Below, in pieces: positions 1 through 57,633 of a DNA stretch of 64,000 bases (within the stretch, counting starts at the first letter, position 1; the number at the start of each line of letters is the position of its first letter). The position numbers and the translations under genes are program-made. Under the pieces are notes generated by a model, which was not told where the DNA came from, did no database searches, and saw only the letters and a program-made list of their open reading frames with translations. Location of the stretch: NCBI GenBank assembly GCA_963764715.1, contig CAVXTP010000001.1:37532-101531 (forward strand). The letters run 5' to 3'. The DNA comes from an uncultured Acidobacteriota bacterium. GTDB taxonomy: Bacteria > Acidobacteriota > Thermoanaerobaculia > UBA5066 > Gp7-AA6.

Positions 1-1911
1 CGCTCCCCCGCCCTCGCCCGACTCGACGAACGCGAACCACGAGCCGTCGGCGGCGATGTCGCGCACGCCGGACCAGTCGAGCCACGAGAGATCCTTTTCG
101 CCCCTGTCGCCCGGGGCGTAACCGAGGATGCCCGACCGCAGTGTGTCGTGCGCGACGAGAACGCGCCCGTCCCGGGCCACGTCGTGGAGAGTCAGGTTGC
201 CGGTCACGCGGGCGAGCACCCGCGTCCGACCCGAGAGGCTCGCGGCGTAGATGCTGCGATTCCCGCCGACCTCGGCGGCCGTAAACCACACCTCGCGGCC
301 GCCCGGGGGCCACGCGAGGCCGCCCGCCGTGGAGAACTCGCGCGCCAGCGTCGTCATCTTCCCGGCCCGGTCGATCACGGCCACCGATCCCCCGTCGTCG
401 CCGATGGAAGGATGGTTGATGAAGGCCACGGAATCGCCGCCCGGCGAAACGCGCAGGTTGGTGATCCAGCCGTCGGTCTCGTAGAGCGTCTTGCCGATCG
501 GATATTCGACTCGGGTCTTGGATCCGACGGTGCGCACGATCGCGAGCGTCTGGCCGTCGGGAGCCCAGTCGGCGAACTGGACCTCCTCCTGGATCTCCCG
601 GGGCGTTCCCCCGCCCGTGATCCCGATGCGGGCGAGCGTGCCGGCCCGCTCGAACGGTCCGACGAAGTGTCGATTCAGGCCGACGGCCATCTCGCCGGAC
701 GACGAGATCGACAGGACGTCGGCTCCCACGAGCCCGAACGGCCGGGCCTCGGGGCTCTCCAACCGGCTCACGTAGATTTCGACCGGCCTCCCCTCCCAGG
801 CCGCGGAGTAGATGATGGTCTGGCCGTCGGGCGCGAAGCGCGCCGTGAAGATCTCGCCGCGCTGGAAGGTCAGCTCCCGGAAGGACGGCGGGGTCGTCGC
901 GCCCGCCTTCTTCCCGCCGGCGAACGCGGCGGCGCCGACGATCGCGGCGAGGGCCAGGGCGGCGAGGATCCACGGCCAGGCCCGCCGGCCCGATCGGACC
1001 GCCGCCGTTGCCGCGGCCGTCTGATCGGTCGACGTCGAGAACGACGCTTCCGAGAGATGGTCGCGCACGTCCGCGAGATCGCGCGCGAGGTCCTTCGTCG
1101 TGCCGAACCGGTCCTCCGGGTCCTTCGCGAGGCAGCGCTCGACGAGCCAGCGCACGGGCGAGGGCACCTTCGGGTTGAGCTGCCCGAGAGGCGCCGGCTC
1201 CTCGCGGATGATCGCCGTCATCGTCTCCGCCGTCGTCGCCCGCTCGAAGGCGCGCTTGCCCGTCGCGAGCTCGTAGACCATCGATCCGAAGGAGAACTGG
1301 TCGGAGCGAAAGTCGACCATCCGTCCGGACGCCTGCTCCGGCGACATGTAGCCGACCGTCCCCATGACCATGCCCGGCCGCGTCGGCTCTCCGACCGCCG
1401 TCTTCAGGGCCGAGACCTCCTGGTCCTCGGGCGTGATGAGCTTGGCGAGGCCGAAGTCCAGGATCTTCGCGAACCCGTGCTTGGAGACCATGACGTTCTG
1501 CGGCTTCAGGTCGCGATGAACGATTCCGGCGGCGTGGGCCGCGGCGAGCCCGTCGGCGATCTGCACCGAAATCTCGAGGAGCTTCTTGACCGGCACGGGG
1601 CCGGCCGCCGAGAGGTCCTTCAGCGTCCCGCCCTCGACGAGCTCCATCGCGATGTAGACGTTCGACTCGTGGGTGCCGATGTCGTAGATCGTCAGGATGT
1701 TCGGGTGCGAGAGCGCCGAGGCCGCCCGGGCCTCCCGCTCGAAGCGGGACCGGCGCTCCGGGTCCGAGGCGAGCTCGGGAGGCAGCACCTTGACGGCGAC
1801 GTCGCGTTTCAAACGCTCGTCGCGCGCGCGGTAGACCTCCCCCATCCCGCCGGCCCCGATGGGCGCGACGATTTCGTAGGGTCCGAGCTTCGTTCCGGCG
1901 GCGAGGGTCAT
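1..1911 (-). CDS. Ser/Thr protein kinase with TM helix and TolB/PD40-like beta-propeller (3' part runs off window)
   Basis: Manual translation from ATG at 1911 gives [27 protein letters not shown]...HRDLKPQN...DFG...GTVGYMSPEQ, then a hydrophobic helix and FRELTFQRGEIFTARFAPDG, as in the neighbouring paralogs. Confidence 0.92.
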   Translation of the reverse strand, partial: MTLAAGTKLGPYEIVAPIGAGGMGEVYRARDERLKRDVAVKVLPPELASDPERRSRFEREARAASALSHPNILTIYDIGTHESNVYIAMELVEGGTLKDLSAAGPVPVKKLLEISVQIADGLAAAHAAGIVHRDLKPQNVMVSKHGFAKILDFGLAKLITPEDQEVSALKTAVGEPTRPGMVMGTVGYMSPEQASGRMVDFRSDQFSFGSMVYELATGKRAFERATTAETMTAIIREEPAPLGQLNPKVPSPVRWLVERCLAKDPEDRFGTTKDLARDLADVRDHLSEASFSTSTDQTAAATAAVRSGRRAWPWILAALALAAIVGAAAFAGGKKAGATTPPSFRELTFQRGEIFTARFAPDGQTIIYSAAWEGRPVEIYVSRLESPEARPFGLVGADVLSISSSGEMAVGLNRHFVGPFERAGTLARIGITGGGTPREIQEEVQFADWAPDGQTLAIVRTVGSKTRVEYPIGKTLYETDGWITNLRVSPGGDSVAFINHPSIGDDGGSVAVIDRAGKMTTLAREFSTAGGLAWPPGGREVWFTAAEVGGNRSIYAASLSGRTRVLARVTGNLTLHDVARDGRVLVAHDTLRSGILGYAPGDRGEKDLSWLDWSGVRDIAADGSWFAFVESGEGGGA

Positions 1912-7126: not shown

Positions 7127-9697
7127 TCACTTGACGCCGTCGACGAGGTAGAGGTCCGACAGCAGCCGGAAGTAGCCGTAGACGTAGGACTGGCCGTCGC
7201 TCGCCGGCCCAGGATTGATGTTCGAGACGCCTGCGGCGTCGGCCGGCATCAGCGTTCGCCAGAGCTCCTTCTTCCCCGTGGCGAGCTCCAGGCGGTAGGC
7301 CTTCGCCGGCACTTCGCTGCGTCGGTGAACATAGAGAAAGCGGCCGTCGGCGCTGCGCTGGTCGACCGAGTCGTCGTCGTCGAGCCCCGTTATGGGAGAA
7401 GGTTCTCCGCCAGCGAGCGGATAGAGGTAACGCCGTCGATCCGGGCCGCCGACGACGGTCCACTTTCCGTCGGGAGCGGTGACTCCGGCCAGCGAGTAGC
7501 CCTCCGGAGTCAGGGCCTTGGGCTTGCCGCCCGCCACGTCGAGCCGGAAGACCCGCGAGCCGCGGCCCGGTTCGGCCGCCTCGATGAGAACGCTCTTTCC
7601 GTCGGGGACCCACGCGGCTCCGAAAACCCTGAGGCCGTCGGTCTTGAAGACCTTCATCTCTCCCGCCCGGGTCGGATACGCAACGAGGCGGGGATCGGAG
7701 GACGTGCGCTGGATCGCCAGTGCCCACTCTCCGTCCAGCGACAGGTCCCGGGCTCCGCCCTCGCCCAGCCTCACGGCCGGAGAGCCGTCCGTCTTCCGTA
7801 TGTAGACGGAGTACCCGGCGCCTCCTCCCTCCCCTGTCTCGGAGAAGAGGATCGTCCGGCCGTCGGCGGCGATGGCGGCGCCGAGCGTCCAGTCGAGCCA
7901 GGTCATGTCGCGCTCCTTCGTCTCGCCCGGAGCCAGGCCGACCATCTCGGAACGAAGCGTGTCGCGCGTGACCAGCATGCGGCCTTCCCGCGAGATGTCC
8001 TGCAGCGTGAGGCATCCCGGCACCCCGGCGCGAAGCGCCGCCTTCCCCGAAAGGGTGGTCACGTAAAGAGCGCGGTTGCCCCCGACCTCCGTCGCCGTGA
8101 ACCAGATCCGCCCGTCGGCGCTCCATGCGAGACCCTGCGCCGACGCAAACGACTGCGAGGCTGTCCGCTTCTTCCCGGAGCGGTCGACCACCGCGATCGA
8201 CCCGCCGTCGTCCCCGGGCGTGGGATGGTCGTCGAAGGCCACGAGCTCTCCGTCGGGCGAAACGCGCAGGTGACTGACCCATCCGCTCGTCTCGTAGACG
8301 GTCTTGCCGACCGGGTACTCGATTCGGCTCTTTCCAGCTCCTCGGAGAGAGACGGCAAGGGCCTTGCCGTCGGGCGCCCAGTCCGCCCATTCCACCCCTT
8401 CGAGGATCTCGCGTGGCGCCGCGCCCCCCGCGACGGAGATCTGCGCGAGCGTTCCCTGGCGCCGGAACCCACTCACGGATCTCCGGTTGAGCGAAACGGC
8501 CATGTCCCCCGTTCGCGAGATCGCGAGGAGCTCCGCGCCGACGAGGCCGAACGGCCGCGATTCCGGGCTCTCGGGACGCCCCACGAAGATCTCCATGGGG
8601 CCGCCGTCCCAGGCGGAGGAGTACACGACCGTCTGGCCGTCGGGTGCGAAGCGCGCGGCGTAGATCGTGCCGCGGCGGAAGGTGAGCTGACGAAACGACG
8701 GCGTGTCGAACTTCACCGTGCCGCGGCCGAGGAAGAACGTCGCCGCCATACCCGCGACTGCGAGCGCGCCGACGAGGAGAAGCGCCCGGCGCGGCCGCGA
8801 CATCACGACCCCCTTCGCCGCCGCGGCGACCGCCGCCGGGGTCGACCCGGACAGCGCCTGGAGGTCGAACGCCAGATCGTGCGCCGAGTGGAAACGTTCC
8901 TCGGGGTTCTTCTCGAGGCAGTGGCGCACCACGCGCTCGAGGCCCGGCGCCACGTTCTTGTTCGTCGCGGAAAGGTCCGGCGGCTCCTCGCGCAGGATCG
9001 CCGACATCGTCTCGGCCGCGGTGTCGCGGTGGAAGGCGCGCGATCCCGAGAGCATCTCGTAGAGCACTGCCCCGAACGCGAAGATGTCCGAGCGAGCGTC
9101 CGCCGGCTTTCCCTTGACCTGCTCGGGCGCCATGTAGCCGAGCGTCCCGAGGACGACGCCGGGCTCCGTCCCGTCCGCCGTCGGAAGGTTGGTCTGGGGA
9201 TTCGTTTGATTTTCGGGCTGGGTCAGCTTCGCCAGGCCGAAGTCGAGGATCTTGACCCGCCCGTCCTTCGTCAGGAACAGGTTCTCGGGCTTCAGGTCGC
9301 GGTGGACGATGCCCTTCTCGTGCGCCGCCGCGAGACCGCGCGCGATCTGCGTCGCGTAGTCGGTGGCCTTGCGGACCGGCAGCGCTCCGCCCGAGAGGCG
9401 CGCGCGCAGCGTCTCCCCTTCGAGGAGCTCCGTGACGATGTACGGCGCGCCGTCGTGGGTGCCGAGGTCGTGGACGGCGGTGATGTTCGGGTGGTTGAGC
9501 CCGCCGGCCGTCTGGGCCTCCTGCTCGAAGCGCCGCAGCCGTTCCGGGTCGCCCGAGTACGACGCCGGCAGGACCTTGACGGCGACCTCGCGCTTCAAGC
9601 GCTCGTCGCGCGCCCGGTAGACCTCCCCCATCCCTCCGGCGCCGATCGGCGCGAGGACCTCGTAGGGCCCGAGCTTCGTTCCGGCGGCGAGGCTCAT
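7127..9697 (-). CDS. Ser/Thr protein kinase-TM-beta-propeller
   Basis: True start MSLAAGTKLGPYE at 9697 (ATGA overlap with upstream gene); full Hanks motifs; SPDG repeats. Confidence 0.95.
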   Translation of the reverse strand: MSLAAGTKLGPYEVLAPIGAGGMGEVYRARDERLKREVAVKVLPASYSGDPERLRRFEQEAQTAGGLNHPNITAVHDLGTHDGAPYIVTELLEGETLRARLSGGALPVRKATDYATQIARGLAAAHEKGIVHRDLKPENLFLTKDGRVKILDFGLAKLTQPENQTNPQTNLPTADGTEPGVVLGTLGYMAPEQVKGKPADARSDIFAFGAVLYEMLSGSRAFHRDTAAETMSAILREEPPDLSATNKNVAPGLERVVRHCLEKNPEERFHSAHDLAFDLQALSGSTPAAVAAAAKGVVMSRPRRALLLVGALAVAGMAATFFLGRGTVKFDTPSFRQLTFRRGTIYAARFAPDGQTVVYSSAWDGGPMEIFVGRPESPESRPFGLVGAELLAISRTGDMAVSLNRRSVSGFRRQGTLAQISVAGGAAPREILEGVEWADWAPDGKALAVSLRGAGKSRIEYPVGKTVYETSGWVSHLRVSPDGELVAFDDHPTPGDDGGSIAVVDRSGKKRTASQSFASAQGLAWSADGRIWFTATEVGGNRALYVTTLSGKAALRAGVPGCLTLQDISREGRMLVTRDTLRSEMVGLAPGETKERDMTWLDWTLGAAIAADGRTILFSETGEGGGAGYSVYIRKTDGSPAVRLGEGGARDLSLDGEWALAIQRTSSDPRLVAYPTRAGEMKVFKTDGLRVFGAAWVPDGKSVLIEAAEPGRGSRVFRLDVAGGKPKALTPEGYSLAGVTAPDGKWTVVGGPDRRRYLYPLAGGEPSPITGLDDDDSVDQRSADGRFLYVHRRSEVPAKAYRLELATGKKELWRTLMPADAAGVSNINPGPASDGQSYVYGYFRLLSDLYLVDGVK

Positions 9698-24684: not shown

Positions 24685-25941
24685 CTAGCCCTTCTTCGGC
24701 CCGTCCTTGCCCGGCCCGCTCTCCTTCTCGATGATGACCCGGTCGCCTTCCTTGATCTGCCGCAGCACCTTGAAGGGCCCCGTGACGATCTCCTGCCCCA
24801 CGGCCGGTCCCTGCTTGACCTCGATCATGAGCTCGCCGGCGATGCCCGGCACGACCTTCGTGAAGGCGAGCTTGCCGTCCTTGATGGTGTACACGCCCTC
24901 CTCGGTCTCGGGGCGGCCGGTCGACGGCGCCTTGCCCTTCTTGTCGACGTCGCGGACGATGAGCGCCTGGATCGGGATCGTCGTCGCGCCGTCGCGGCGG
25001 CCGGTGACGATGTCGGCCGTCACCGAGAAGCCGGGGCGGATCGTGTCCGGCGGGTTGTCGATCTTGATCTTGACCTTGAAGTTGATCGCCTCCGAGTTGG
25101 CGGTCAGCGCGAGCAGGTCCGGGTCGTTCTTGGGGATCGGCGAGGAGCCGACCTCGGTGACGGTGCCGATGAACTTGGTGTTCGGGTAGGCGTCGATCGA
25201 GAGGGTGGCCTTCTGCCCGACCTTGACCTGCGGCACGGAGGTCTCATCGACCATCATGACCGCCTCGACCGTCGCCATGTCGGAAATCGTCATGAGCTGC
25301 GTGCCGGCGTTGTTCATCGTGCCGATGACCGTGACCTCGCCCTCCTTGATCGGAAGCGCGGTCACGACGCCTTCGAGGGGAGCCGTCACCGTCGTCTTCG
25401 ACAGCGAGTCGCGACTCGCCGCGAGGCTCGCCGAGGTGGAGCGCATGCGCTGCTCGGTCGCCGCGAGGTTCGCCTCCGCCGTGTCGAGGTTCGACTTGGC
25501 CTTCTGGAGGTCGGCCTCGGCGAGGATGTTCCCCTTGAAGTTCGCGGCGGCGCGCTCGTAGTCGAACTTCGCCTGCGCGGCGGTCGCCCTGGCCGCGTCG
25601 AGGTCGTGGCGCATCGCCTCGAGATTCGACTCCGCTCCCTGGGCCTGGGCGGCGAGCTGCGCGCGGTCGATCTGGAGAAGGAGCTGGCCCTTCTTGACGT
25701 GGTCGCCTTCCTTGACCGCCAGGTTCACGATCTGTCCCATGACGAGGGCGGACATGTCGACCTTGCGCTGGGCCTGGATCTTGCCGTTGGCGGTGACCTT
25801 CGAGACGAGGTCGAGCTTCTCGACCTTGGCGGTCGTCACGCGGGGCACGTCCTTGTCCCGCCCGCGGATGAAGGCGGTCAGGGCGCCGATGACGGCGACC
25901 CCCAGGATGGCCCCCCCGATGATCTTGGTCCTCTTCGACAT
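24685..25941 (-). CDS. Efflux transporter periplasmic adaptor (MacA-like MFP)
   Basis: N-terminal TM; VKEGDHVKKGQLL lipoyl-like motif; coiled coil; APLEGVV. Confidence 0.92.
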   Translation of the reverse strand: MSKRTKIIGGAILGVAVIGALTAFIRGRDKDVPRVTTAKVEKLDLVSKVTANGKIQAQRKVDMSALVMGQIVNLAVKEGDHVKKGQLLLQIDRAQLAAQAQGAESNLEAMRHDLDAARATAAQAKFDYERAAANFKGNILAEADLQKAKSNLDTAEANLAATEQRMRSTSASLAASRDSLSKTTVTAPLEGVVTALPIKEGEVTVIGTMNNAGTQLMTISDMATVEAVMMVDETSVPQVKVGQKATLSIDAYPNTKFIGTVTEVGSSPIPKNDPDLLALTANSEAINFKVKIKIDNPPDTIRPGFSVTADIVTGRRDGATTIPIQALIVRDVDKKGKAPSTGRPETEEGVYTIKDGKLAFTKVVPGIAGELMIEVKQGPAVGQEIVTGPFKVLRQIKEGDRVIIEKESGPGKDGPKKG

Positions 25942-26068
25942 GGCCCTCAATCCTCCGGTCTAACGCGGTTTTCCTGCGTATTCCTTTCTACGGAACGGCC
26001 CTCGGAAAGTTCAATTCCCCGGAGCCCATTGAAAAGACTGGGGCTTTTCGCTAGCCTTCCGCTCCCCT

Positions 26069-26145
26069 GCGCCCATAGCTCAATTGGATAGAGCGTCTGA
26101 CTACGGATCAGGAGGTTGGGGGTTCGACTCCCTCTGGGCGCACCA
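26069..26145 (+). tRNA. tRNA-Arg (ACG)
   Basis: GCGCCCATAGCTCAATTGGATAGAGCGTCTGACTACGGATCAGG...GGTTCGACTCC...GGGCGCACCA forms a cloverleaf. Confidence 0.97.
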
Positions 26146-26171
26146 CTTCCGACTGGGGTAGCCTCCCCGCG

Positions 26172-26630
26172 GTGTCTTTCACGGACCAGGACCGCCGTTT
26201 CATGGCCGAGGCCCTCGCCTTCGCGCGCATCGCCTATGCCGAGCAGGAGGTCCCCATCGGGGCGGTCGTCGTTCGGGACGGACGGATGATCGGCCGGGGG
26301 CGCAACCGCCGGGAACGGCTCGCCGACCCCACCCACCACGCCGAGATCGAGGCCATCCGGGAGGCCGCCCGCGAGGTCGGTCACTGGCGCCTCGAGGACT
26401 GCACCCTCTATGCCACGGTGGAGCCCTGCGCGATGTGCGCCGGCGCCGCGGTCAACGCCCGGATCCGACGGATCGTCTTCGGCTGCACGGACCCCAAGGC
26501 CGGCTATTGCGGCACCCTCGGAAACATCCCGGGGGACGCGCGGCTGAACCACCGGCCCCAGGTCGAAGGGGGCCTTCTGGCCGACGAGTCGGCCGAGATG
26601 CTCCGCCAGTTCTTCCAGGCGAAACGCTGA
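26172..26630 (+). CDS. tadA: tRNA-specific adenosine-34 deaminase
   Basis: EVPIGAVVV, HAEI, EPCAMCAGA motifs. Confidence 0.92.
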   Translation: MSFTDQDRRFMAEALAFARIAYAEQEVPIGAVVVRDGRMIGRGRNRRERLADPTHHAEIEAIREAAREVGHWRLEDCTLYATVEPCAMCAGAAVNARIRRIVFGCTDPKAGYCGTLGNIPGDARLNHRPQVEGGLLADESAEMLRQFFQAKR

Positions 26631-26676
26631 CGGGGTCAGGTCTTCATTTTTCGGTTCGAGGCCCGACCCGGTTCCG

Positions 26677-27063
26677 TCAGGCCACCTGGTAGATCTGGAT
26701 CAGGTTGCCGCAGGTATCGGCGAAGACCGCCATCGTGACCGGCCCGGCCGGAGTCGGCTCCATGGTGAACGCCACGCCCTTCGCCTTGAGCTTCGCGCAC
26801 TCGCCGCGGATGTCGGACGACTCGAACGCCGCGATCGGGATCCCCTGCGCGAACATCGCCTCCTGGAACTTCTTCGCCGCGGGGTTCGCATTGGGCTCCA
26901 GCGCGAGCTGCACGTCGTCGCCCGCCTCCGGCGACACGACCGTGATCCAGCGGTACTCCCCGACGGGAAAGTCGAGCTTCGTCCTGAAGCCCAGGACCTC
27001 CGTGTAGAACTTCTGCGCCCGGGCCTGGTCCTCGACCATGACGCTCGTGAGCTTGATCTTCAT
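26677..27063 (-). CDS. VOC/glyoxalase family protein
   Basis: VEDQARAQKFYTEVLGF; FADTCGNLIQI. Confidence 0.9.
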   Translation of the reverse strand: MKIKLTSVMVEDQARAQKFYTEVLGFRTKLDFPVGEYRWITVVSPEAGDDVQLALEPNANPAAKKFQEAMFAQGIPIAAFESSDIRGECAKLKAKGVAFTMEPTPAGPVTMAVFADTCGNLIQIYQVA

Positions 27064-27116
27064 TGCGTCGCTCCTTTCTCTGACGGCCGGGCGGAAGTCT
27101 GCCCGAGCGCCGGGAG

Positions 27117-27560
27117 TCAGGCTTCTCGAAAACTGCGAAACGCCGACGGCGGCAGGCGGCCCATGAGCGAAAGGCAGCCCGGGAAGAGCTCCCGCGGCAG
27201 CCCGCCCGGCACCCGGACCATCGACCGAGCGCGGCGGCGGAACCCCGACGGCGTCTCCCCGACGCGGCGCGTGAAGACATCACTGAAGCTGCCGAGGCTC
27301 GAGAAGCCGACCTCCATGCAGACCTCGGTGACGGAAAGCTCGCCTTTTGCCAGGAGCCGCCGGGCGCGGTCGAGCCGCGCCTCGATCCGGTACTGGTGCG
27401 GCGTCGCGCCGAAGACCGCATCGAATCGCCGGATGAAGTGGAATGGCGAGATACCCGCAAGCCTCGCCGCTTCCTCGACCGAAAGCGGCCGTTCCGTGAC
27501 GCTCCGGAGCGCCCGGCGAGCACGGCAGAGTCCGGAAAAGAGGCTCGGCCCGACCAGCAT
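27117..27560 (-). CDS. AraC family transcriptional regulator
   Basis: SPFHFIRRF...TPHQY; SVTEVCMEVGFSSLGSFS. Confidence 0.9.
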   Translation of the reverse strand: MLVGPSLFSGLCRARRALRSVTERPLSVEEAARLAGISPFHFIRRFDAVFGATPHQYRIEARLDRARRLLAKGELSVTEVCMEVGFSSLGSFSDVFTRRVGETPSGFRRRARSMVRVPGGLPRELFPGCLSLMGRLPPSAFRSFREA

Positions 27561-27626
27561 TCGAGCCCCAGTCTACGACTGACAGCGCCCCAAAAATCCG
27601 CTAGGATGCGCCCCTTCCACCCGCGC

Positions 27627-27716
27627 GGAGAGGTGCTGGAGTGGTTGATCAGGCCGGTCTCGAAAACCGGTAGGCCCGAAAGGGTCTCGTGGGTTCAAAT
27701 CCCACCCTCTCCGCCA
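27627..27716 (+). tRNA. tRNA-Ser (CGA)
   Basis: GGAGAGGTG...CCGGT CTCGAAA ACCGG, long variable arm, GGTTCAAATCCCACCCTCTCCGCCA. Confidence 0.96.
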
Positions 27717-28090
27717 CTACTACTGCCTCGCGACAGTCGTGGGTTCACCCGACCACCAGCGGCAGACCCCCGGCAGTAGGGAGCCGTCCACCAGAGATCG
27801 ACCCCCGATCTTAGGCAACGCTGGCCGAAGGCCAGCGGTAACCCACGCTGCGCGAAGCGCAGCGGTAAATCCCACCCTCTCCGCCACTAATGTTGCCTCG
27901 AGACAGTCGTGGGTTCGCCCGACCACCAGAGGCAGACCCCCGGCAGCAGGGAGCCGTCCACCAGAGATCGACCCCCGATCTTAGGCAACGCTGGCCGAAG
28001 GCCAGCGGTAACCCACGCTGCGCGAAGCGCAGCGGTAAATCCCACCCTCTCCGCCATTATTGCTCCTCGAGAGAGTCGTGGGGTCGGCGC
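27717..28090 (+). repeat. tRNA-Ser-linked tandem repeat: two 170-bp units plus a partial third
   Basis: Units 27717-27886 and 27887-28056 are near identical; each ends in the tRNA 3' 20 nt AAATCCCACCCTCTCCGCCA. Confidence 0.95.
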
Positions 28091-28092
28091 CC

Positions 28093-28395
28093 TCACCGGA
28101 TCGGATCGATCGGCGTGCGCCTGGGCTCCTTGCCGAAGCGGATCCGCGACTTCTCGATCATCTTGCGGATCTCGACATCGCGATCCTTTGGCGGGGCGTT
28201 GGTCACCCACCCATGGACCAGTCGCTCGGCCGCCGCGGCGACCTCGTCCACCGCGCGTTGGAACAACGCCTCATTGGCGCGCGAGGGCTTGTTGGCCCCG
28301 CTCAGCTTGCGGACGAACTGCAGCGACGAGGCCCGGATCTCGGCCGCGGTGGCCGGGGGCGCGAAGTTGGCCAGGGTACGGATGTTGCGGCACAT
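28093..28395 (-). CDS. DUF2277-like protein
   Basis: MCRNIRTLANFAPPATAAEIRASSLQFVRKLSG signature. Confidence 0.85.
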   Translation of the reverse strand: MCRNIRTLANFAPPATAAEIRASSLQFVRKLSGANKPSRANEALFQRAVDEVAAAAERLVHGWVTNAPPKDRDVEIRKMIEKSRIRFGKEPRRTPIDPIR

Positions 28396-28487
28396 GCGTT
28401 CACACTAACCCAGCCCCCCGGCGGACGGGTGGTCTCCGGTTTTTCCTAAACCCCGCCCCAAGGAATCCGTAATAATCCGCGAGCCCC

Positions 28488-29414
28488 ATGGAAAACGCGA
28501 TCGAGCTGGAGCACGTCGCCAAGAGCTTCGGCCGCTTCAAGGCGGTCGACGACCTGTCGCTGAAGGTCCCGAAGGGCTCGATGTTCGGCCTTCTCGGGCC
28601 CAACGGCGCGGGCAAGACGACGACGATCCGGATGACGATGAACATCACGGCGCCCGACTCCGGCGAGATCCGGATCCTCGGGCACCCGATGGACCGCGCC
28701 ACGCAGAACCGCATCGGCTACCTTCCCGAGGAGCGCGGGCTCTACCGGAAGATGAAGGTGATCGACCACCTCTACTTCCTGGCCGCGATCAAGGAGGTCG
28801 GCCGCGAGACCGCGAAGGAGCGCATCTCCGGCTGGATCGACAAGATGGAGCTGCGCCCCTGGCTCAACAAGAAGGTCGACGAGCTCTCCAAGGGCATGCA
28901 GCAGAAGGTCCAGTTCATCGCGACGATCGTCCACGATCCGGAGATCCTGATCCTCGACGAGCCGTTCTCGGGACTCGACCCGCTGAACGTCGCCCTGATG
29001 CGCGACTACTTTCTCGACTTCCGCGCCAAGGGCAAGACGATCATTTTCTGCACGCACGTCCTCGAGCAGGCCGAGAAGCTCTGCGACGAGATCTGCCTGA
29101 TGGCCAAGTCGAAGAAGATCCTCGAGGGCAGCCTCAGGGACTTGAAGCGCCGCAACTCGAGCGGGCTCCTGCGGCTTTCGACCAACGCCAGCCTCGCCGA
29201 CGTCTCGGCTCTCCCGGGCGTCGACTCCGCGAAAGCCGTCGACGGGTCCTTCGTCATCGCGCTCGCGCCGGGCGTCGCGCAGAAGGACTTTCTGAAGCGG
29301 GCCCTCGACACGTACACGGTCGAGGCCTTCTCGCAGAAGGAGCCCGACCTCGAGGAAATCTACATCGACGCCGTCCGGAACGCGGGCCTGGAAGAGACCC
29401 GCACGATCGAATGA
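28488..29414 (+). CDS. ABC transporter ATP-binding protein (NatA/YhaQ-like)
   Basis: GPNGAGKTT, LSKGMQQK, ILDEPFSGLDP. Confidence 0.95.
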   Translation: MENAIELEHVAKSFGRFKAVDDLSLKVPKGSMFGLLGPNGAGKTTTIRMTMNITAPDSGEIRILGHPMDRATQNRIGYLPEERGLYRKMKVIDHLYFLAAIKEVGRETAKERISGWIDKMELRPWLNKKVDELSKGMQQKVQFIATIVHDPEILILDEPFSGLDPLNVALMRDYFLDFRAKGKTIIFCTHVLEQAEKLCDEICLMAKSKKILEGSLRDLKRRNSSGLLRLSTNASLADVSALPGVDSAKAVDGSFVIALAPGVAQKDFLKRALDTYTVEAFSQKEPDLEEIYIDAVRNAGLEETRTIE

Positions 29415-29421
29415 GGCCCGC

Positions 29422-30747
29422 ATGAACTGGAAGAAGACCTTCGCGATCGTCCGGCGGGAGTACATCGAGCGCGTCCGCACGAAGTCGTTCTGGGTGGCGA
29501 CGCTCCTCATCCCGTTCCTGTTCCTCGCCTACATCGCCTTCCAGATCTCCTCGTCCCGCAAGACCGGCGGCGAGCGGACGATCGTGGTCGTCGACCAGAC
29601 CGGCACGCTGTACGCCCCGCTCGAGAAGGAGCTCGCGGCGACCGAGTCCGAGCAGAAGGCGAAGGGATCCGGGAACAAGGGGCCGCACTGGAACCTGAAG
29701 CTCGCTCCGGCCGGCGGAGATCTCGCGGCGACGAAGGAGGCCCTTCGCAAGCAGGTCCTCGCCAAGGACATCAGCGGCTACCTCGTCCTCGAGCCGCAGA
29801 AGATCAAGAACGACGAGGTCGAGTACTACTCGACGACGGTGTCGGACTTCATCGCGCTGAACCAGCTCGAACGCTCCCTCAACCGCGTGCGCATGCGGGA
29901 GAAGATGCACGACCGCGGACTGCCCACGGACCTCGCCGGCGAGCTCGAGAAGCGGATCGACTTCAAGGCCTTCAAGGTCACCGAGAAGGGAACCGCCGAG
30001 GAAAAGGGCGCCGGCATCATCGCCGCGATCATCTTCATGGTGCTCATGTACACGACCTTCTTCGTGTACGGCGGCCAGGTCATGCGCGGGGTCATCGAGG
30101 AAAAGTCGAGCCGGATCGTCGAGATCATCATCGCCTCCGTGCGGCCGACCGAGCTGATGCTGGGCAAGATCATCGGCATCGGCCTCGTCGGCCTGACGCA
30201 GTACCTGGTGTGGTCGCTCCTCGCGATGAACCTGTCGCTCCCGGGGATCGCCACCGTTCTGTCGTCGAGCGACATGGGCGTGCCCCGGATTCCGGTCGCG
30301 ATGCTCGGCTACTTCATCCTGTTCTTCGTGCTCGGCTACTTCGTCTACGCCAGCGTCTACACGACGATCGCGGCGCCGTTCAACAGCGAGCAGGAAGCCA
30401 CCCAGTTCATGATGATCCCGATCATCCTCATCCTCGCCGGCTTCATGGTTTACCCGGCCGTGATGAACAACCCCAACGGCAACGTGGCGGTCTTCTTCTC
30501 GCTCTTCCCGTTCACGTCCTCGCTCGTTATGTTCCTCCGGACGGCCGTCTCCGAGCCCCCGGCCTGGCAGGTACTTCTCTCGATCGCCCTCCTGATCGCC
30601 ACGACCGTCGGCCTCGCCTGGTTCGCGGGCCGCGTCTACCGCGTCGGCATCCTCATGTACGGCAAGAAGCCCACGATCCCCGAGATCCTGCGGTGGGTCA
30701 GCTACAAGCCTGGCAAGGCTCCCCAGCCGGCGGCGAAGGCGCCGTAG
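29422..30747 (+). CDS. ABC-2 type permease (NatB/YhaP-like)
   Basis: REYIERVRTKSF; VIEEKSSRIVE; multiple TM segments; YRVGILMYGK. Confidence 0.92.
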   Translation: MNWKKTFAIVRREYIERVRTKSFWVATLLIPFLFLAYIAFQISSSRKTGGERTIVVVDQTGTLYAPLEKELAATESEQKAKGSGNKGPHWNLKLAPAGGDLAATKEALRKQVLAKDISGYLVLEPQKIKNDEVEYYSTTVSDFIALNQLERSLNRVRMREKMHDRGLPTDLAGELEKRIDFKAFKVTEKGTAEEKGAGIIAAIIFMVLMYTTFFVYGGQVMRGVIEEKSSRIVEIIIASVRPTELMLGKIIGIGLVGLTQYLVWSLLAMNLSLPGIATVLSSSDMGVPRIPVAMLGYFILFFVLGYFVYASVYTTIAAPFNSEQEATQFMMIPIILILAGFMVYPAVMNNPNGNVAVFFSLFPFTSSLVMFLRTAVSEPPAWQVLLSIALLIATTVGLAWFAGRVYRVGILMYGKKPTIPEILRWVSYKPGKAPQPAAKAP

Positions 30748-30810
30748 GGCCTGTCCCGGCGGGCGGTTGCCCCGATCGCGACGGCTGTGCTACCTTTCGC
30801 GCCCCCGTTT

Positions 30811-30885
30811 GGCCCATTCGTCTAACGGTTAGGACGCGGCCCTCTCAAGGCCGAAATACGGGTTCGATTCCCGTATGGGCTACCA
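30811..30885 (+). tRNA. tRNA-Glu (CTC)
   Basis: GGCCCATTCGTCTAACGGTTAGGACGCGGCCCTCTCAAGGCCG...GGTTCGATTCCCGTATGGGCTACCA. Confidence 0.96.
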
Positions 30886-31055
30886 GCTCCCCGCCGCTTC
30901 GTTATTAGCCCGCCGCGTCCTCCGGACGCGACCCTCTCAAGGCGGCTTCCTTTGAGCGCGCCCTTCCGGGCGCGACACGGGTTCGATTAGCGCCGGGCGG
31001 ACCCGGCGCTTGTCGCGGCGCTTTCGCGCCGCTCGGTGCCCCGTATGGGCTACCA
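30886..31055 (+). repeat. tRNA-Glu-derived repeat copy 1 (170-bp unit)
   Basis: Contains CCCTCTCAAGGC, ACGGGTTCGATT and CCCGTATGGGCTACCA separated by hairpin insertions. Confidence 0.92.
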
Positions 31056-31154
31056 GATCTCCCCGCGCTGTCAGCTCCCGCCGACGGGGGTCAACGCTGC
31101 TTTCCTGCAGCGTCACGTCGGCACAGGATTGCAGCGTTGACCCTGTTCACCTGT

Positions 31155-31688
31155 TTACCGGTCCTGCTCCTGCGGGACGCGAACGATGCGCGAGACGTCG
31201 TAACCCTGCTCGCCGACCAGCGCGAGGAGGCGCGCGTAGTCGGCCTCTGGAATGCGCGGAGTGCGCGCCATGATCCAGACGTGATCGCGCTTGTTGCGGC
31301 TGATGATGGTGGTGGAGTAGTCCTCGTCCAGGTACGTGATCAGGTACTCCGCCTCGATCGGCCACACGAACTGCATGCCCCAGGTGGCGTTGGTGCGCTT
31401 GTCGCGCACGTACCCCCTGGGCGTGTAGCGCTTCGGTTTGCCGTCGAAGCCGCCCTTGCGGAAGGTGAAGGTCGTCTCCACGACGCCGTCCGGGCGCAGG
31501 CGGTACGACTCGATGGCGGCGTAGGCGCCCTTCTCGAGCGAGGTCGGGATGCTGGCGATGACGTACCAGTCCCCCATGAACCTCGCGAGATCCACGTGGT
31601 CCACGGTCTTCAGCGGCCGTAGCGCGGAGGTCGAGCATCCCGTCGCGGCGACGAGGAGGCCCGCCAGGAGGAAGCGGGCGCCGGCCAC
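31155..31688 (-). CDS. Lipocalin (Blc-like) lipoprotein
   Basis: Lipobox ATGC; VDLARFMGDWYVIA; WIMARTP. Confidence 0.88.
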   Translation of the reverse strand: MAGARFLLAGLLVAATGCSTSALRPLKTVDHVDLARFMGDWYVIASIPTSLEKGAYAAIESYRLRPDGVVETTFTFRKGGFDGKPKRYTPRGYVRDKRTNATWGMQFVWPIEAEYLITYLDEDYSTTIISRNKRDHVWIMARTPRIPEADYARLLALVGEQGYDVSRIVRVPQEQDR

Positions 31689-31692
31689 GATT

Positions 31693-32355
31693 TCAGAGCA
31701 GTTCGTAGAGGAGGCGGTGGCCGCCTTCGAGCTGCGACTCCAGGCCGAGCCAGCCTCCGCCGGGCGCGTACCAGAGGTCGATCGCCATGCCCGGCGCCTT
31801 CAGCCGGTATCGTTCCGCCCGGGTCACCGCGCCGCGCACCGGGAACGTCTCCTCGCCCAGCGGTTGCACCTCGACGGCCACGAGTTCGCCCGTCTGGCTG
31901 TTCAGCAGCGACGAGCGCTCGAGGAACTCCGGGTTCCAGTAGGCGAAAGAGCTGACGCAGGACGGCCCTGCTCGCCGCGCGCCCCGGCTTTCGACGAGGA
32001 ATTGATTCCCGGCCGAGGCCCCGCGCACTTCGTACGTTCTGCCGTTGTCGTCGGTGCGCGACTGGATGCTGGCCAGACAGCGATCGTCCCAGACCTCCAC
32101 GGCCTCGTGCCGGTACTCGTAGGCCGTGACGAAGAGGAGCTTGACCTTGAGCGCGGCCTCGCTCCGAAGCACTTTCCGCGAGCCCTCGGTCCGGAGAACG
32201 AAGTCGTGACGCCCCACCTCGCGCCCGTCGAGGAGAACGCGGAAGCGCCATTGCTGCGTCGGCTCCGCGTCCGCCCGGGCGGCCCGCGCCCCGTTCGGAG
32301 TGATCGCGCCGAGCACGGCCAGCGCGAGTGCGGCCAGAACGTTCCGCGACTTCAT
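31693..32355 (-). CDS. Secreted protein, DUF6134-like
   Basis: Signal peptide from MKSRNVLAAL; FRVLLDGREVGRH; YEYRHEAVEVW; LLNSQTGE. Confidence 0.7.
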   Translation of the reverse strand: MKSRNVLAALALAVLGAITPNGARAARADAEPTQQWRFRVLLDGREVGRHDFVLRTEGSRKVLRSEAALKVKLLFVTAYEYRHEAVEVWDDRCLASIQSRTDDNGRTYEVRGASAGNQFLVESRGARRAGPSCVSSFAYWNPEFLERSSLLNSQTGELVAVEVQPLGEETFPVRGAVTRAERYRLKAPGMAIDLWYAPGGGWLGLESQLEGGHRLLYELL

Positions 32356-32681: not shown

Positions 32682-32849
32682 CCCGTATGGGCGACCAACT
32701 CCAGCCGGCTTCGCGAGGGACGGCTGCGTCCCGCCGCAGCCCTCTCAAGGCGGCTCACTCTCAGGCGTCGCTCCGCGACGCGCGCGCCCCTTCTCGCGCG
32801 ACACGGGGTCGTTTGGCGTTGCCGCCGAGCATCGGCGTCGTGAACGCGG
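32682..32849 (+). repeat. tRNA-Glu-derived repeat copy 2 (degenerate)
   Basis: CCCGTATGGGCGACCA...GCCCTCTCAAGGCGGCT...CGCGACACGGGGTCGTTT; GTTCGATTCCCG just upstream at 32641. Confidence 0.85.
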
Positions 32850-34827: not shown

Positions 34828-35080
34828 AGACGCAGACACCAGCCGTTCGAAGTGGAGCAGAACCTGGTCCTCGCCCTAGAAGCGAAGCGGGCTCGCCTCC
34901 CAGATCCGGACTTGGCGTCTTATCCGAACCAGCTTCTCGATGCCTGCAGCGAGGTCTGGCAGGGGTTCACGGCGATCCTGGAACACGGCTTTCCAGGTCA
35001 ACCTTCAGTCTTCCCAGCTGCGTGAGCCAGTCTTGGATCTGGTTTCAGCTGGGGCCAGATCAACCCCACTCCAAGTCTCA

Positions 35081-35210
35081 CGCCGCGTCCTGCGGATGCA
35101 GCCCTCTCAAGATGGCTGCCTTTGAGCGCGCCCTTTCGGGCGCGACACGGGTGAAATTGGCGCCGGGGGGTACCCGGCGCCTTGTGTCTGCTCTTCGCGC
35201 GCTCGCGCGC
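35081..35210 (+). repeat. tRNA-Glu-derived repeat copy 3
   Basis: CGCCGCGTCCTGCGGATGCAGCCCTCTCAAG...CCTTTGAGCGCGCCCTTTCGGGCGCGACACGGGT...GGCGCCGGG...ACCCGGCGCC aligns with 30911-31010. Confidence 0.9.
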
Positions 35211-37010: not shown

Positions 37011-37143
37011 CCCGTATGAGCTACTTGCTCTCTGCCGCTTCGTTAGTTACCCGCCGCGTCCTGCGGTCACGACCCTCTCAAGGCGAATCCCTTTGAGCGC
37101 GCCCTTTCGGGCTCGATACGGGTTCGATTCCGGCATGTGTTCC
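37011..37143 (+). repeat. tRNA-Glu-derived repeat copy 4
   Basis: CCCGTATGAGCTAC...GCCGCTTCGTTA...CCCGCCGCGTCC...GACCCTCTCAAGGCG...CCTTTGAGCGCGCCCTTTCGGG...TACGGGTTCGATTCC aligns with 30870-30988. Confidence 0.92.
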
Positions 37144-56491: not shown

Positions 56492-57633
56492 ATGAGCTCC
56501 CGCGGTTCGGCCTCGGTCGAGCTGCGCCCGGGAGCGGGCGCGGGACGGGGCGCCGTCCTGCGCTCTCGCCGGCCCCTTCGACGTCTCGACGGCCGCCGCG
56601 GCGCGCCGGCAGATCCTCGAGGCCCTCGGCGGAGCGCGGCCCGCCGCTCTCGAGGTCGACGCGAGCGGCATCGACCGCGGCGACGTCTCGGGGATGGCCC
56701 TGCTCTACGAGCTCGCGCAGGGACGGCTGCTGCCCGGCGTGCGCGCTCCGGTCAAGGGCCTGCGCCCCGAGTTCCAGACGCTGCTGGCGGCCTTTCCGAC
56801 GCCGGAGGCTCTCGACGCGCTGGCGGCGCCGCCGGAGAAGCGAGGCTTCTTCCGCGAGGTCGGGGCCGCCACGCGGTCGATGTTCGCGGACCTCGGCGCG
56901 CAGATGTCCTTCATCGGCGGCGTCGTCCTGGGGTTCGCCGCCGTGCTGCGGCGTCCGCGCCTCATGCGCTGGCGCGAGGTCGCGGTCGTCTTCGAGAAGG
57001 CCGGCGTCAACGCCCTGCCGATCGTCTCGCTCATCAGTCTTCTCATGGGCCTCGTCATCGCGTTCGAGGCCGCGCAGCCCCTCGAGATGTTCGGCGCCCA
57101 GATCTTCATCGCCGACATGATCGGCCTCGTCATGGTCCGCGAGTTCTCGCCGATCTTCACGGCGATCATCTTCGCCGGGCGCTCGGGCTCGGCCTTCGCC
57201 GCCGAGATCGGCACCATGAAGGTCAACGAGGAGTTGAACGCCCTCGAGACGATGGGCCTCGACCCGATGCGCTTCCTCGTGATCCAGCGCGTCTTCGCCG
57301 GGACGATGCTGATGCCGGTCCTCGCGGCCTACTCGATGGTCCTCGGCGTCTTCGGCGGCGTCCTCGTCATGCTGACGATGGGCTTCCCGCTCGCCCAGAT
57401 CTGGGGCCAGCTCGAGGGCGCCCTCCACGTTCGGGACGTCGTCGTCGGGAGTCTCGAAGTCGTTCGTCTTCGGGGCGATCGTCGCCGGCCTCGGCTGCCT
57501 GCGCGGGATGCAGACGAAGGAGGGCCCCAACGCCGTCGGCGACTCGACGACCCGCGCCGTGGTGGCGGGGATCCTCATGATCATCGTCGTGGACGCCGTC
57601 TACAGCGTCATCACCTACGTGCTGCACGTATGA
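56492..57633 (+). CDS. MlaE-family ABC permease with N-terminal STAS-like domain (frameshifts)
   Basis: AGRSGSAFAAEIGTMKVNEELNALETMGLDP; AVGDSTTRAVV. Confidence 0.85.

Follow-up and report, generated by a model that had tools for sequence, protein, structure and literature searches.

Tail repeats downstream of two acidobacterial tRNA genes: equal 170-bp periods with probably separate histories

Two tRNA genes of a soil acidobacterium, tRNA-Ser(CGA) and tRNA-Glu(CTC), are each followed by repeats of their own 3' end at the same spacing, which raises the question of whether one mechanism set both periods. Here, we report the anatomy of both arrays in a 64,000-nucleotide stretch of the genome (the window; coordinates are window positions unless a contig, C1, C6, or C17, is named), together with related repeats elsewhere in this genome and in its relatives. 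A first-pass annotation had placed the tRNA-Ser tails (with TCTCCGCCA) at 27716, 27886, and 28056 (+170 and +340) and the tRNA-Glu tails (with GGGCTACCA) at 30885 and 31055 (+170), hence three spacings of exactly 170 bp, and these were reproduced. The 18-nt tRNA-Ser terminus recurred with 0 mismatches at +170 and at +340, and the 18-nt tRNA-Glu terminus with 2 mismatches at +170 (16/18; final 16 nt, 16/16). TRF detected the Ser array (27697-28086; period, 170; 2.3 copies; 94% matches), and the single Glu unit was absent from its output. The repeats behind both tRNAs are clearly non-random. The annotation was also right that the Ser and Glu units have no common sequence (blastn-short at E ≤ 10 returned 7- to 8-nt words alone) and that hairpins split the T-arm in both, with ~110 nt from GTCGTGGGTTC to AAATCCCACC in the Ser units and 51 nt between the halves ACGGGTTCGATT and CCCGTATGG in the Glu unit. 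When the folds were compared, as it had proposed, topologies differed and no common fold emerged. No unit in the window was called as a tRNA by the Rfam tRNA model or ARAGORN.

At the Ser locus (features of both loci are on the forward strand, apart from one hairpin given without strand), an intact tRNA-Ser(CGA) gene with encoded CCA (27627..27716; ARAGORN; Rfam tRNA, 56.6 bits) has a candidate promoter, CTGACA-17-TAGGAT (27579..27607), 20 nt upstream. This was the sole promoter-like site in a consensus scan of 27400-31300 (1 found versus 0.2 expected in shuffles), and the scan returned no comparable box within the units. Unit 1 (27717..27886, 170 nt; sequence and TRF) consists of an AT-richer trailer copy, the T-stem 5' half with TTC, a composite hairpin insert, and the 3' part of the T-loop through to CCA. 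The insert is a REP-like element (type 1) with a second copy inside it: the head of the outer element (CGACCACCAGCGGCAGACCCCCGGCAGTAGG; 27750..27780, C1 65281-65311) begins 3 nt past the TTC of the split T-loop, a full-length copy follows (27785..27842; nhmmer, C1 65316-65373, E = 1.5e-08), and the hairpin tail of the outer element is placed 3' of this nested copy. Unit 2 (27887..28056, 170 nt; 98% identical to unit 1 over 163 nt) carries the same pair at 27920-27950 and 27955-28012, and a partial third repeat of trailer copy and GTCGTGGGGTC (28057..28086; sequence and TRF) stops at the T-stem 5' half. The Ser unit of two relatives (G017 and G056) lacks query positions 67-128, which constitute a full-length type 1 match by nhmmer. 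The Ser period is a 108-nt unit plus a nested repeat copy that adds ~62 nt.

A direct tail repeat stands behind tRNA-Ser(cga) in 8/44 genomes of the genus, and the array would be young. Its basic 108-nt unit would have comprised the trailer, the T-stem 5' half, one ~58-nt type 1 element in the T-loop, and the tRNA remainder through CCA; a second type 1 copy would have landed within the first (+62 nt) in the lineage of the subject genome and its closest relative, and the resulting 170-nt unit would subsequently have been tandem-duplicated in the subject genome.

The type 1 element is ~58 nt long, with a 31-nt conserved head 5' of a GTAGG tag and a 7- to 9-bp GC hairpin (GAA or GCA loop) after it; 39 of the 50 full-length copies have 9 stem pairs. 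Its 61 nhmmer hits, these 50 included, are dispersed and extragenic, so that it combines the GC-rich palindrome, GTAG tag, and many dispersed extragenic copies by which GTAG-class REP/RAYT elements are recognized. More than half of the full-length copies (27/50) lie between the two halves of another, host REP hairpin, of which 191 copies are empty of type 1. REPs inserted within palindromes have been documented (PMC3733652). Fourteen of the 61 hits fall within 500 bp of the 49 credible tRNA/tmRNA genes versus 0.74 expected, a ~19-fold enrichment that, like the breakpoint counts below, overstates the number of events because copies and relatives are not independent; the 14 are spread over 7 loci, among them each of the four tRNA-Ser genes. 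Sampled relatives within the genus contained type 1 in 24/24 cases, and genomes of two other families in 0/16. The genome also carries a RAYT gene (173-aa Y1_Tnp; C17:16419-16937) with GTAG REPs on its flanks, which are the host REP (GTAGGGGCGGGG..., often with type 1 in its loop) and not type 1 itself. Through RAYT-type (Y1 HUH) activity, type 1 would enter hairpin loops of single-stranded DNA; its boundaries in loops are not clean cut-and-paste junctions.

The intact tRNA-Glu(CTC) gene, also with encoded CCA (30811..30885; ARAGORN; Rfam tRNA, 64.3 bits), is followed by one 170-nt unit (30886..31055) delimited by sequence, comparison with relatives, and folding. Its first part holds a variable spacer, a hairpin (CGCGTCC/GGACGCG) built on tRNA positions ~21 to 27, and a conserved anticodon-loop copy (CCCTCTCAAGG); its second part holds a partial complement (CCTTTGAG), a hairpin (GCGCGCCC/GGGCGCG), the T-stem 5' half and T-loop, an insert, and the T-stem 3' half through CCA. 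Comparison with relatives delimits the insert, 51 nt with two hairpins at the junction of T-loop and T-stem 3' half (30989..31039), by which the subject unit differs from their 119-nt units. The Glu period is this 119-nt unit plus the 51-nt insert at the T-loop. The insert is not a dispersed repeat within the subject genome, where the sole copy directly behind tRNA-Glu(CTC) is the unit that contains it, and it recurs in the last array unit of three relatives (G001, G017, and G012).

Between the Glu unit and a convergent lipocalin gene lies a long imperfect hairpin (31086..31143; stem exposed by a spurious miRNA-family match and by the sequence) that may be a terminator-like element. Three decayed Glu-type units follow 1.8 to 6.2 kb downstream with accessory genes in between: unit 2 (32705..32816; profile positions 8-104) ends at the T-loop and has a decayed ...CCCGTATGGGCGACCA tail just 5' of it, unit 3 (35067..35159; profile positions 12-103) also ends at the T-loop with a relative of the 51-nt insert directly 3', and unit 4 (37036..37138; profile search) is the final one ahead of a conserved PEP-mutase flank. 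An integron-type cassette array, with an adjacent integron integrase and co-oriented promoterless cassettes, is not indicated: no integrase was found, and the inter-unit genes, regulators among them, occupy both strands. The Glu locus would be old; its 119-nt unit is a member of a module family that accompanies tRNA-Glu(CUC) across several genera from two families.

Given such composite units, is the shared length meaningful? The annotation had suggested that a single mechanism, working at the T-loop and producing units of constant length, may have generated both, and had itself named widely varying periods elsewhere as the outcome that would make the equality a coincidence; such variation was found. 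A census from 57 ARAGORN calls in the subject genome gave 8 tRNA loci with repeats, with first units of 126, 157, 163, 167, 170, 170, 176, and 177 bp; a period of 235 bp also occurs, and island-type repeats are spaced 2.6 to 14.4 kb. The orthologous tRNA-Glu locus of 11 relatives has periods of 116 to 123, 130, 145, 166, and 172 bp, and Glu units in other genera have 96, 117, 129, and 132 bp. Behind tRNA-Ser(cga), the 8 genus genomes gave 24, 102, 107, 108, 109, 170/170, 172, and 1,044 bp; Ser(gga) periods were 41, 113, 116, 121, and 187 bp, and Ala/Pro-type arrays had 174 to 179 and 157 to 160 bp. As a point against coincidence, 6/8 first-unit lengths in the subject genome cluster within 157 to 177 bp, which separate histories explain only in part.

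A T-loop mechanism laying down 170-bp units regardless of sequence could draw on the three exact spacings behind two tRNAs, on that clustering, and on the T-loop as a real common breakpoint. We nonetheless regard it as extremely improbable: across the tRNA genes of the subject genome and of relatives, periods run from 24 to 235 bp with orthologous loci unequal, both 170s are sums of separable parts (108 + 62 and 119 + 51) with shorter forms in relatives, and equality is unremarkable because an exact tie among eight such values arises in simple simulations with a probability of 0.30 to 0.43. The equal lengths are probably a coincidence that needs no new mechanism.

The part of the proposal that stood is the site. 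At both loci a dead tRNA copy is split at the T-loop, and type 1 (~58 nt) interrupts T-arm copies of three other tRNAs as well, tRNA-Ser(gct), tRNA-Ala, and tRNA-Pro. Among truncated Glu-type units in 12 genomes, 10/17 end at profile positions 101 to 104 of 118 and 7/17 end elsewhere (counts subject to the non-independence noted above), and relatives show small T-loop indels of 1, 5, and 7 nt. The T-loop is a preferred breakpoint. A single agent was not demonstrated: the Ser and Glu inserts differ in sequence, and the evidence therefore fails to show one agent at both loci.

In the reading that we think likely, both arrays are tRNA-linked repeats whose units are non-functional partial copies of the upstream tRNA 3' part plus trailer, with the T-arm split by hairpin-forming DNA; the two have separate histories and their equal length is fortuitous. 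Concerted evolution is seen among units, which are near-identical within a genome and divergent between genomes and whose acceptor strand and T-arm follow the host tRNA. Tandem copy number would change by unequal homologous recombination between the repeated tails, and recombination may likewise have produced the first duplication. T-arm inserts could persist only in dead copies, because an insert in a working gene would be selected against. The units would be co-transcribed with the tRNA.

Alternatively, the units could derive from integrative elements, as scars or as miniature, non-autonomous versions. A tyrosine integrase whose crossover falls in the T-loop, at the T/acceptor junction, or in the anticodon loop inserts DNA that brings its own copy of the tRNA 3' part; repeated integration, interior loss, and mobilization in trans would leave tails ~100 to 180 bp apart and gene blocks between units. 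Integration into tRNA genes with a regenerated gene and a displaced fragment, and crossover subsites at these three places, are described in PMC4383910. The 3' tDNA fragments here do lie downstream in the same orientation with boundaries at a known crossover subsite, and the genome contains classical islands: tRNA-Pro(cgg) with an adjoining integrase and a repeat 14.4 kb off, three tandem 2.6- to 3.3-kb islands on C6, and two tmRNA islands with T-loop boundaries. Gene blocks of 1.1 to 2.3 kb separate Glu units; an ArsR-type block common to G017 and G023 begins right after CCA and has at its far end a degenerate T-loop fused to CCCGTA..., and G016 has an HTH_20 gene at its position. The tyrosine integrase gene expected within the interval was not found, however, with no Phage_integrase hit in or near the Ser and Glu arrays of 6 genomes and none among 18 window ORFs or 59 ORFs of the downstream regions of 12 genomes. 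No known element is nearly as small as units of 100 to 180 bp, type 1 is a simple T-loop insert without a second tail copy, and the right ends of decayed units do not share a single position, so we hold this origin to be unlikely. A 24-nt duplication in G001, and the T-loop boundaries, would also be compatible with old integrase scars.

A further possibility, which is compatible with the preferred reading of separate tRNA-linked repeats and which we rate as tentative and rather doubtful, is that the units, the Glu module above all, work as structured RNAs that share the tRNA transcript and are excised from it at the repeated tail, the Glu unit being a partial tRNA-Glu(CUC) mimic with anticodon loop, long extra arm, T-arm, and CCA. 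Family f3 and several genera of family f1 retain its architecture, and its lineage signature differs from that of the host tRNA. The anticodon-loop copy (CCTCTCAAGG) is kept in 51/59 distinct Glu units, and conservation across genera extends to parts absent from the tRNA, such as the signature AAGG|CGGC, the hairpin of the variable region, and the 5' strand of the D'-hairpin. This suggests selection or horizontal spread and is not explained by dead copies alone. Hairpin partners covary between lineages (CGCGTCC/GGACGCG versus GCTGCGTC/GACGCAGC, and likewise in the variable-region hairpin), all five whole-structure measures exceeded shuffles (four reached by 0/500, the fifth by 1/500), trailers after each CCA look A/T-richer than their surroundings by eye, and the units have no promoter-like box of their own. 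In E. coli, RrA/B/F are tRNA-linked repeats processed into Hfq- and CsrA-binding RNAs (PMC8144298).

Against an RNA role, the two strands fold equally well, non-Watson-Crick pairs in type 1 stems show no asymmetry (G-U versus A-C, 3 versus 2), most paired columns are invariant in an alignment fitted to the model, and copy number ranges from 0 to 8 between relatives, with some genus genomes having no unit directly behind the gene. Rfam searches gave nothing beyond tRNA and chance hits (E ≤ 1 over 25500-32000; E ≤ 0.1 over six other loci), the RtT family (RF00391) included; ARAGORN labeled a 126-nt unit behind tRNA-Glu(ttc) as tRNA-Arg(ccg). It is quite unlikely that the tRNA-Glu(CUC) module, rather than being debris, is a selected, order-wide partial tRNA mimic with an invariant anticodon loop, extra hairpin arm, and T-arm (either a CCA-ended RNA cleaved from the tRNA transcript or a folded recombination site), with the Ser T-loop split by the REP-like element through the same loop-directed chemistry. 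Were the recombination-site version true, the T-loop would be a docking point for DNA and the tRNA-Glu array an integrase-less, integron-like platform for small accessory gene blocks.

Under the preferred reading, these arrays are clearly a counterpart, outside the enterobacteria, to the tRNA-linked repeats (TLRs) of E. coli, whose origin and purpose have been open since 1978. They offer handles absent from the E. coli case: a module family conserved across genera, which therefore permits comparative tests of selection; a consistent T-loop breakpoint; and a dispersed REP-like element whose repeated presence in REP loops and in the T-loops of dead tRNA copies is relevant to target choice by REP-type elements. 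In these soil bacteria, the stretch behind tRNA-Glu forms a hypervariable islet that houses accessory genes.

The signature of tDNA fragments left by integrase-borne genomic islands was reportedly set out by Williams in 2002 for Islander. Like such islands, our arrays have co-oriented direct repeats of the tRNA 3' part, tandem arrangement, and boundaries at the T-loop, T/acceptor junction, or anticodon loop; unlike them, the intervals are 100 to 180 bp or 1 to 2 kb and integrase-free, and the island finder demands 2 to 200 kb. With GTAG REP/RAYT systems and BIME-like mosaics (PMC3733652), type 1 shares the GTAGG tag and GC hairpin, dozens of dispersed extragenic copies, nesting and mosaics, and a genome whose RAYT is flanked by GTAG REPs. 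Type 1 differs from those REPs in the 31-nt conserved head upstream of the tag, in its position within the loops of other hairpins (T-arms of dead tRNA copies among them), and in its enrichment near tRNA genes, and its mobilizing enzyme is only putative.

The closest comparison is with the TLRs of Escherichia coli K-12 (Egan and Landy 1978 and Rudd 1999, as cited in PMC8144298). According to that paper, one to five such units directly follow a tRNA (or rRNA) gene and share its orientation (178 bp at tyrT; 150-bp spacing at rrnB), most without known function; each unit ends in an 18- to 19-bp copy of the mature 3' end, and the copy therefore begins in or at the T-loop. The Ser and Glu units are likewise immediately downstream of the tRNA gene, in the same orientation and of similar sizes, and end as the upstream gene does (Ser, 18/18 nt twice; Glu, 16/16 and 16/18). 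They differ in phylum and have no sequence or Rfam similarity to the E. coli repeats, they retain much more of the tRNA (in the Glu unit, the complete T-arm and the anticodon loop), and hairpin inserts divide their T-arm. The Glu family, moreover, encloses small blocks of accessory genes and forms tandem arrays of up to 8 copies.

The tRNA-Ser(cga) and tRNA-Glu(ctc) genes were called at 27627-27716 and 30811-30885, respectively (ARAGORN; the Rfam tRNA model concurs). Read from the sequence, copies of the Ser tail (...TCTCCGCCA) end at 27716, 27886, and 28056 and copies of the Glu tail (...GGGCTACCA) at 30885 and 31055; these coordinates bear out the exact 170-bp spacing that a first-pass annotation had given for all three intervals, two at Ser and one at Glu. 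The Ser array was delimited with Tandem Repeats Finder at 27697-28086 (period, 170; 2.3 copies; 94% matches); it runs from within the genuine gene's T-loop to a third T-stem 5' half, after which it stops. The two units, as also annotated, have no sequence in common beyond words of 7 to 8 nt, and both have a split T-arm, with the Ser insert placed after the first three T-loop bases and a 51-nt insert in Glu.

The same annotation had proposed a single mechanism with a fixed unit length for both genes, which does not hold. In the source genome (4.36 Mb, 26 contigs, 70% G+C), the last 18 nt of each of 57 ARAGORN calls were sought in the 3 kb downstream. Nine genes had a tail copy there: Ser(cga) (170 and 340 bp), Glu(ctc) (170 bp), Pro(tgg) (157 bp), Ser(gct) (163 bp), Ala(ggc) on contig C19 (177 bp), Ala(ggc) on C20 (176, 411, and 1579 bp), Leu(cag) (167 bp), Glu(ttc) (126 bp), and Pro(cgg) on C6 (2739 bp); a tenth row of the census was the Glu(ttc) unit itself, miscalled as a tRNA by ARAGORN. 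An exact tie among the eight comparable first-unit lengths arose in 30 to 43% of trials in simple simulations. Among 11 relatives, tail copies at the orthologous tRNA-Glu locus are spaced by 116 to 123 (where as many as four or five units run in succession), 130, 145, 166, and 172. Of 44 genomes of the genus searched by pattern for the Ser tail, 8 have it directly repeated behind tRNA-Ser(cga), at spacings of 24, 102, 107, 108, 109, 170/170, 172, and 1044; those behind tRNA-Ser(gga) in genus genomes were 41, 113, 116, 121, and 187, and arrays of the Ala and Pro type had periods of 174 to 179 and 157 to 160. Surveyed behind every tRNA call of the genome and at several tRNA loci of its relatives, periods thus vary widely and do not settle on 170, and since the relatives' spacings vary at both loci, the question of a fixed length is decided against it. 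Both 170s also decompose. The Ser unit of two relatives (G017 and G056) is 107 to 108 nt long and lacks positions 67 to 128 of the 170-nt unit, which are a full-length copy of a dispersed element described below (type 1), and the Glu unit of relatives is 119 nt long, to which the 170-nt form adds its 51-nt insert between ACGGGTTCGATT and CCCGTATGG. The sums 108 + 62 and 119 + 51 are therefore equal by chance; the 170/170 match is a coincidence, and the fixed-length mechanism is rejected.

Each Ser unit has four parts, in order a trailer copy of ~20 nt, GTCGTGGGTTC (the T-stem 5' half and first three loop bases), the insert, and AAATCCCACCCTCTCCGCCA. The core of the insert is type 1, a GTAG-tagged, REP-like element of ~58 nt with the consensus CGACCACCAGAGGCAGACCCCCGGCAGTAGG(C/G)AACG, a 7- to 9-bp hairpin, and CGGTAAC. 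Profile searching detected 61 genomic copies, of which 50 are full length; 27 of these 50 are flanked by the two arms of the host REP hairpin GGGCGGSS...SSCCGCCCCTAC, which occurs in 191 copies without type 1. Three copies are nested inside other type 1 copies, and the element is also found inside T-arm copies of tRNA-Ala, tRNA-Pro, and tRNA-Ser(gct). Of the 61 copies, 14 are no more than 500 bp from one of the 49 credible tRNA/tmRNA genes, versus 0.74 expected; they form seven loci, all four tRNA-Ser genes among them, and seven is the safer count because tandem copies are not independent. All 24 sampled relatives of the genus carry type 1, as do none of 16 genomes of two other families. The tRNA variable region contains GTAGG at four of the seven type 1-associated loci; this may mark tRNAs to which the element is drawn, though GTAG is common in tRNAs anyway. 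Non-Watson-Crick pairs in type 1 stems (three G-T versus two A-C) are too few to judge strand asymmetry.

Parts of PMC3733652 put on record GTAG-tagged REPs, RAYT transposases, and REPs within other palindromes. We read type 1 as a REP-class element that enters hairpin loops, by an enzyme and a chemistry that we infer. One such loop open to type 1 would be the T-loop in dead tRNA copies, which alone could retain an insert. A 173-aa Y1 transposase encoded on C17 (16419-16937), with GTAG REPs on both sides, is a possible mobiliser. In the literature on REP/RAYT/REPIN and tRNA genes, we found no description of tRNA gene copies whose T-loops hold REP-type inserts. Three proteins of ~320 aa that begin with a Y1-transposase domain and continue into a long C-terminal extension (C6:495300-496274, C4:28500-29593, and C7:33483-34445) are, unlike the 173-aa protein, not flanked by GTAG REPs. 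Next to the Ser array, a DUF2277 gene (28093-28395, minus strand) stands before an ABC transporter in the source genome (G000) and in G017, G056, and G023; it is missing in G041 and G007, where the transporter adjoins directly. The 3' flank of tRNA-Ser(cga) is different in most relatives.

The Glu unit retains the tRNA, with changes, from about position 21 through CCA. It has an extra strand (CCGCGTCC) that pairs with GGACGCGG, an anticodon loop (CCCTCTCAAGG) together with a partial complement of that loop, and a GC hairpin in the variable region, while the T-arm and acceptor 3' strand are kept. Units are near-identical inside one genome; the spacer and hairpins vary between genomes. The 51-nt insert is not a dispersed repeat, its sole match elsewhere in the genome below an E value of 0.001 being 28 nt long. 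A covariance model built from 15 Glu units was applied to 121 genomes from the order, a tally that takes in two unpublished genomes (G030 and G060) on which alone no claim rests; one G030 locus is within the alignment behind the covariation, CCTCTCAAGG, and signature counts. Unit-length matches came from genera g1, g8, g9, g10, g11, g12, and g14 of family f1 and from family f3; family f2 gave, among the matches listed, only 54-nt matches to the tRNA itself. The largest array has eight copies (G062; period, ~129), and other periods were ~132 (G061), 117 (G097), and 96 (G026). Units bear the signature AAGG|CGGC, where host tRNAs mostly have CCGA, CTAA, CTGT, or CTGA (CGGC in one of nine distinct tRNA-length rows), and their T-arm tracks the host tRNA, e.g., ACGAG...CTCGT in g9 and g10. 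CCTCTCAAGG is kept in 51 of 59 distinct units. Covariation is modest (both partners changed in 7 of 17 pairs), and the five whole-structure measures all lay above shuffles in an alignment that is model-fitted and mostly invariant by column. In family f3 and genus g12, the working gene is preceded by a tandem series of whole pseudo-tRNA-Glu copies (locus L062 of G028, 243-552; locus L085 of G065, 1700-1900, minus strand). These retain the 5' acceptor strand and the start of the D-arm, are interrupted by inserts in the D-loop, variable region, or T-arm, and each lie behind a separate copy of a promoter-like box (TGCTATTCT...). Given its distribution across genera and its conservation, the Glu module is old and maintained, in contrast to the young, sporadic Ser units.

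Scanning the 10 kb that follow tRNA-Glu in each of 12 genomes with a unit profile returned 17 truncated Glu units. Ten end at profile positions 101 to 104 of 118, which is the T-loop, and three right after the anticodon-loop copy; the ten are partly orthologous and by our reading represent at least five separate events. Together with T-loop indels of 1, 5, and 7 nt in relatives and the inserts in the Ser and Glu units, these ends uphold the earlier suggestion of the T-loop as a common site of action and support it as a recurrent insertion site. Scars left by integrases would account for the breakpoint positions, as integrase crossover subsites fall in the anticodon loop, the T-loop, and the T/acceptor junction (according to sections of PMC4383910), but would leave the absence of integrases, the size of the units, and the simple inserts in the T-loop without explanation. 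Integrase and transposase families were found neither among the 18 ORFs of the window nor among 59 ORFs (third-position G+C pre-filter) from the 12 downstream regions, and in six genomes checked for Phage_integrase, no match lies close to the arrays. A conserved tyrosine recombinase of ~400 aa is common to G017, G056, G023, and G006.

Gene blocks lie between units downstream of tRNA-Glu. Three further, decayed Glu-type units in the window (32705-32816, 35067-35159, and 37036-37138) have genes between them for a lipocalin, a DUF6134 protein, an OmpR/TPR regulator, a DUF1579 protein, and unknowns, and a conserved PEP-mutase flank follows the last unit. An ArsR-type block common to G017 and G023 starts right after CCA and ends at a degenerate T-loop joined to CCCGTA..., and an HTH_20 gene of G016 occupies its position. 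The tests run do not support an integron-like platform for such blocks.

Elsewhere in the genome, a second unit family lies behind tRNA-Ala(ggc) (C19:17025-17201 and C20:20925-21335), tRNA-Pro(tgg) (C11:13930-14086 and 8781-8997), and tRNA-Leu(cag) (C22:603411-603577), and it forms tandem arrays in relatives. Its units have an inverted copy of the host tRNA's variable loop, T-stem 5' half, and T-loop (19 to 20 nt perfect for Pro and Ala), followed by a conserved core (TGGGGGGYTCGGGGGGC...GCCCCCCGCC...CGAGCGNAGCGAGGCG) and a direct copy from T-arm to CCA; from this layout, the family looks like a small element with terminal inverted repeats tailored to each tRNA. A guide role of the inverted T-arm copies (Ala, Pro, and Leu units), like that of bridge RNA or omega RNA, was considered, but no matching transposase adjoins them. 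At C11:8781-14161, tRNA-Pro(tgg) and its 157-nt unit are followed by a 4.9-kb block encoding a LuxR-type regulator and a 1086-aa FG-GAP/SLH-like protein, with no integrase inside; beyond this block come a partial tRNA-Pro copy that begins in the anticodon loop and then a second unit. Behind tRNA-Pro(cgg) at C6:95-8788, three tandem intervals of 2.6 to 3.3 kb each end in the same ~50-nt fragment, which starts in the anticodon loop, and the stretch has no integrase match. At C22:40744-55282, that same tRNA-Pro(cgg) repeat bounds a 14.4-kb island whose integrase adjoins the tRNA; the C6 intervals and this island would fit a pattern of islands mobilised in trans. The 3' portion of the tmRNA that begins at the T-loop recurs 5.3 and 14.9 kb downstream at C18:34171-49439 (intervals of 5.3 and 9.6 kb), and Phage_integrase was not matched on that contig. 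ARAGORN also called a 90-nt "tRNA-Arg(tcg)" at 57165-57254 of the window that has no CCA-like end, and seven more odd calls in the genome look like false positives or tRNA-like repeats. About 20 to 25 nt upstream of several tRNA 5' ends (e.g., 27596-27606 and 30787-30797 in the window) is a GCTA(T/G/C)-type box (TGCTATCTT, TGCTATTTT, CGCTATCCT, CGCTAGGAT, and TGCTACCTT), a possible -10 promoter element for tRNA genes of this group.

Rfam searches of 25500-32000 (E ≤ 1) and of six other loci (E ≤ 0.1) returned tRNAs and chance matches only, and the units are outside every curated RNA family. Folding of both units gave z-scores of -3.5 to -4.1 on all four strands; as all four fold alike, RNA and DNA hairpins are not separable by folding. 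Among sequencing runs searched with sampled words, none of RNA was listed as a match, and the best DNA runs matched just a quarter of those words.

The closest known kind is the tRNA-linked repeat (TLR) of E. coli. Portions of PMC8144298 describe 22 TLR units at ten loci, each ending in 18 to 19 bp identical to the upstream tRNA or rRNA 3' end, with a size of 178 bp at tyrT and a spacing of 150 bp at rrnB; there, RrA/B/F, which bind Hfq and CsrA, are an exception among TLRs as to function. A preprint, in part, derives rtT RNA from the tyrT operon. The acidobacterial units resemble E. coli TLRs in position, orientation, a tail copy from the T-loop on, and size scale, but have no sequence or Rfam relationship to them, keep more of the tRNA, and have the T-loop split, and the Glu units bracket gene blocks. 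The arrays are best read as a variant of TLRs combined with a REP-like element that would invade loops.
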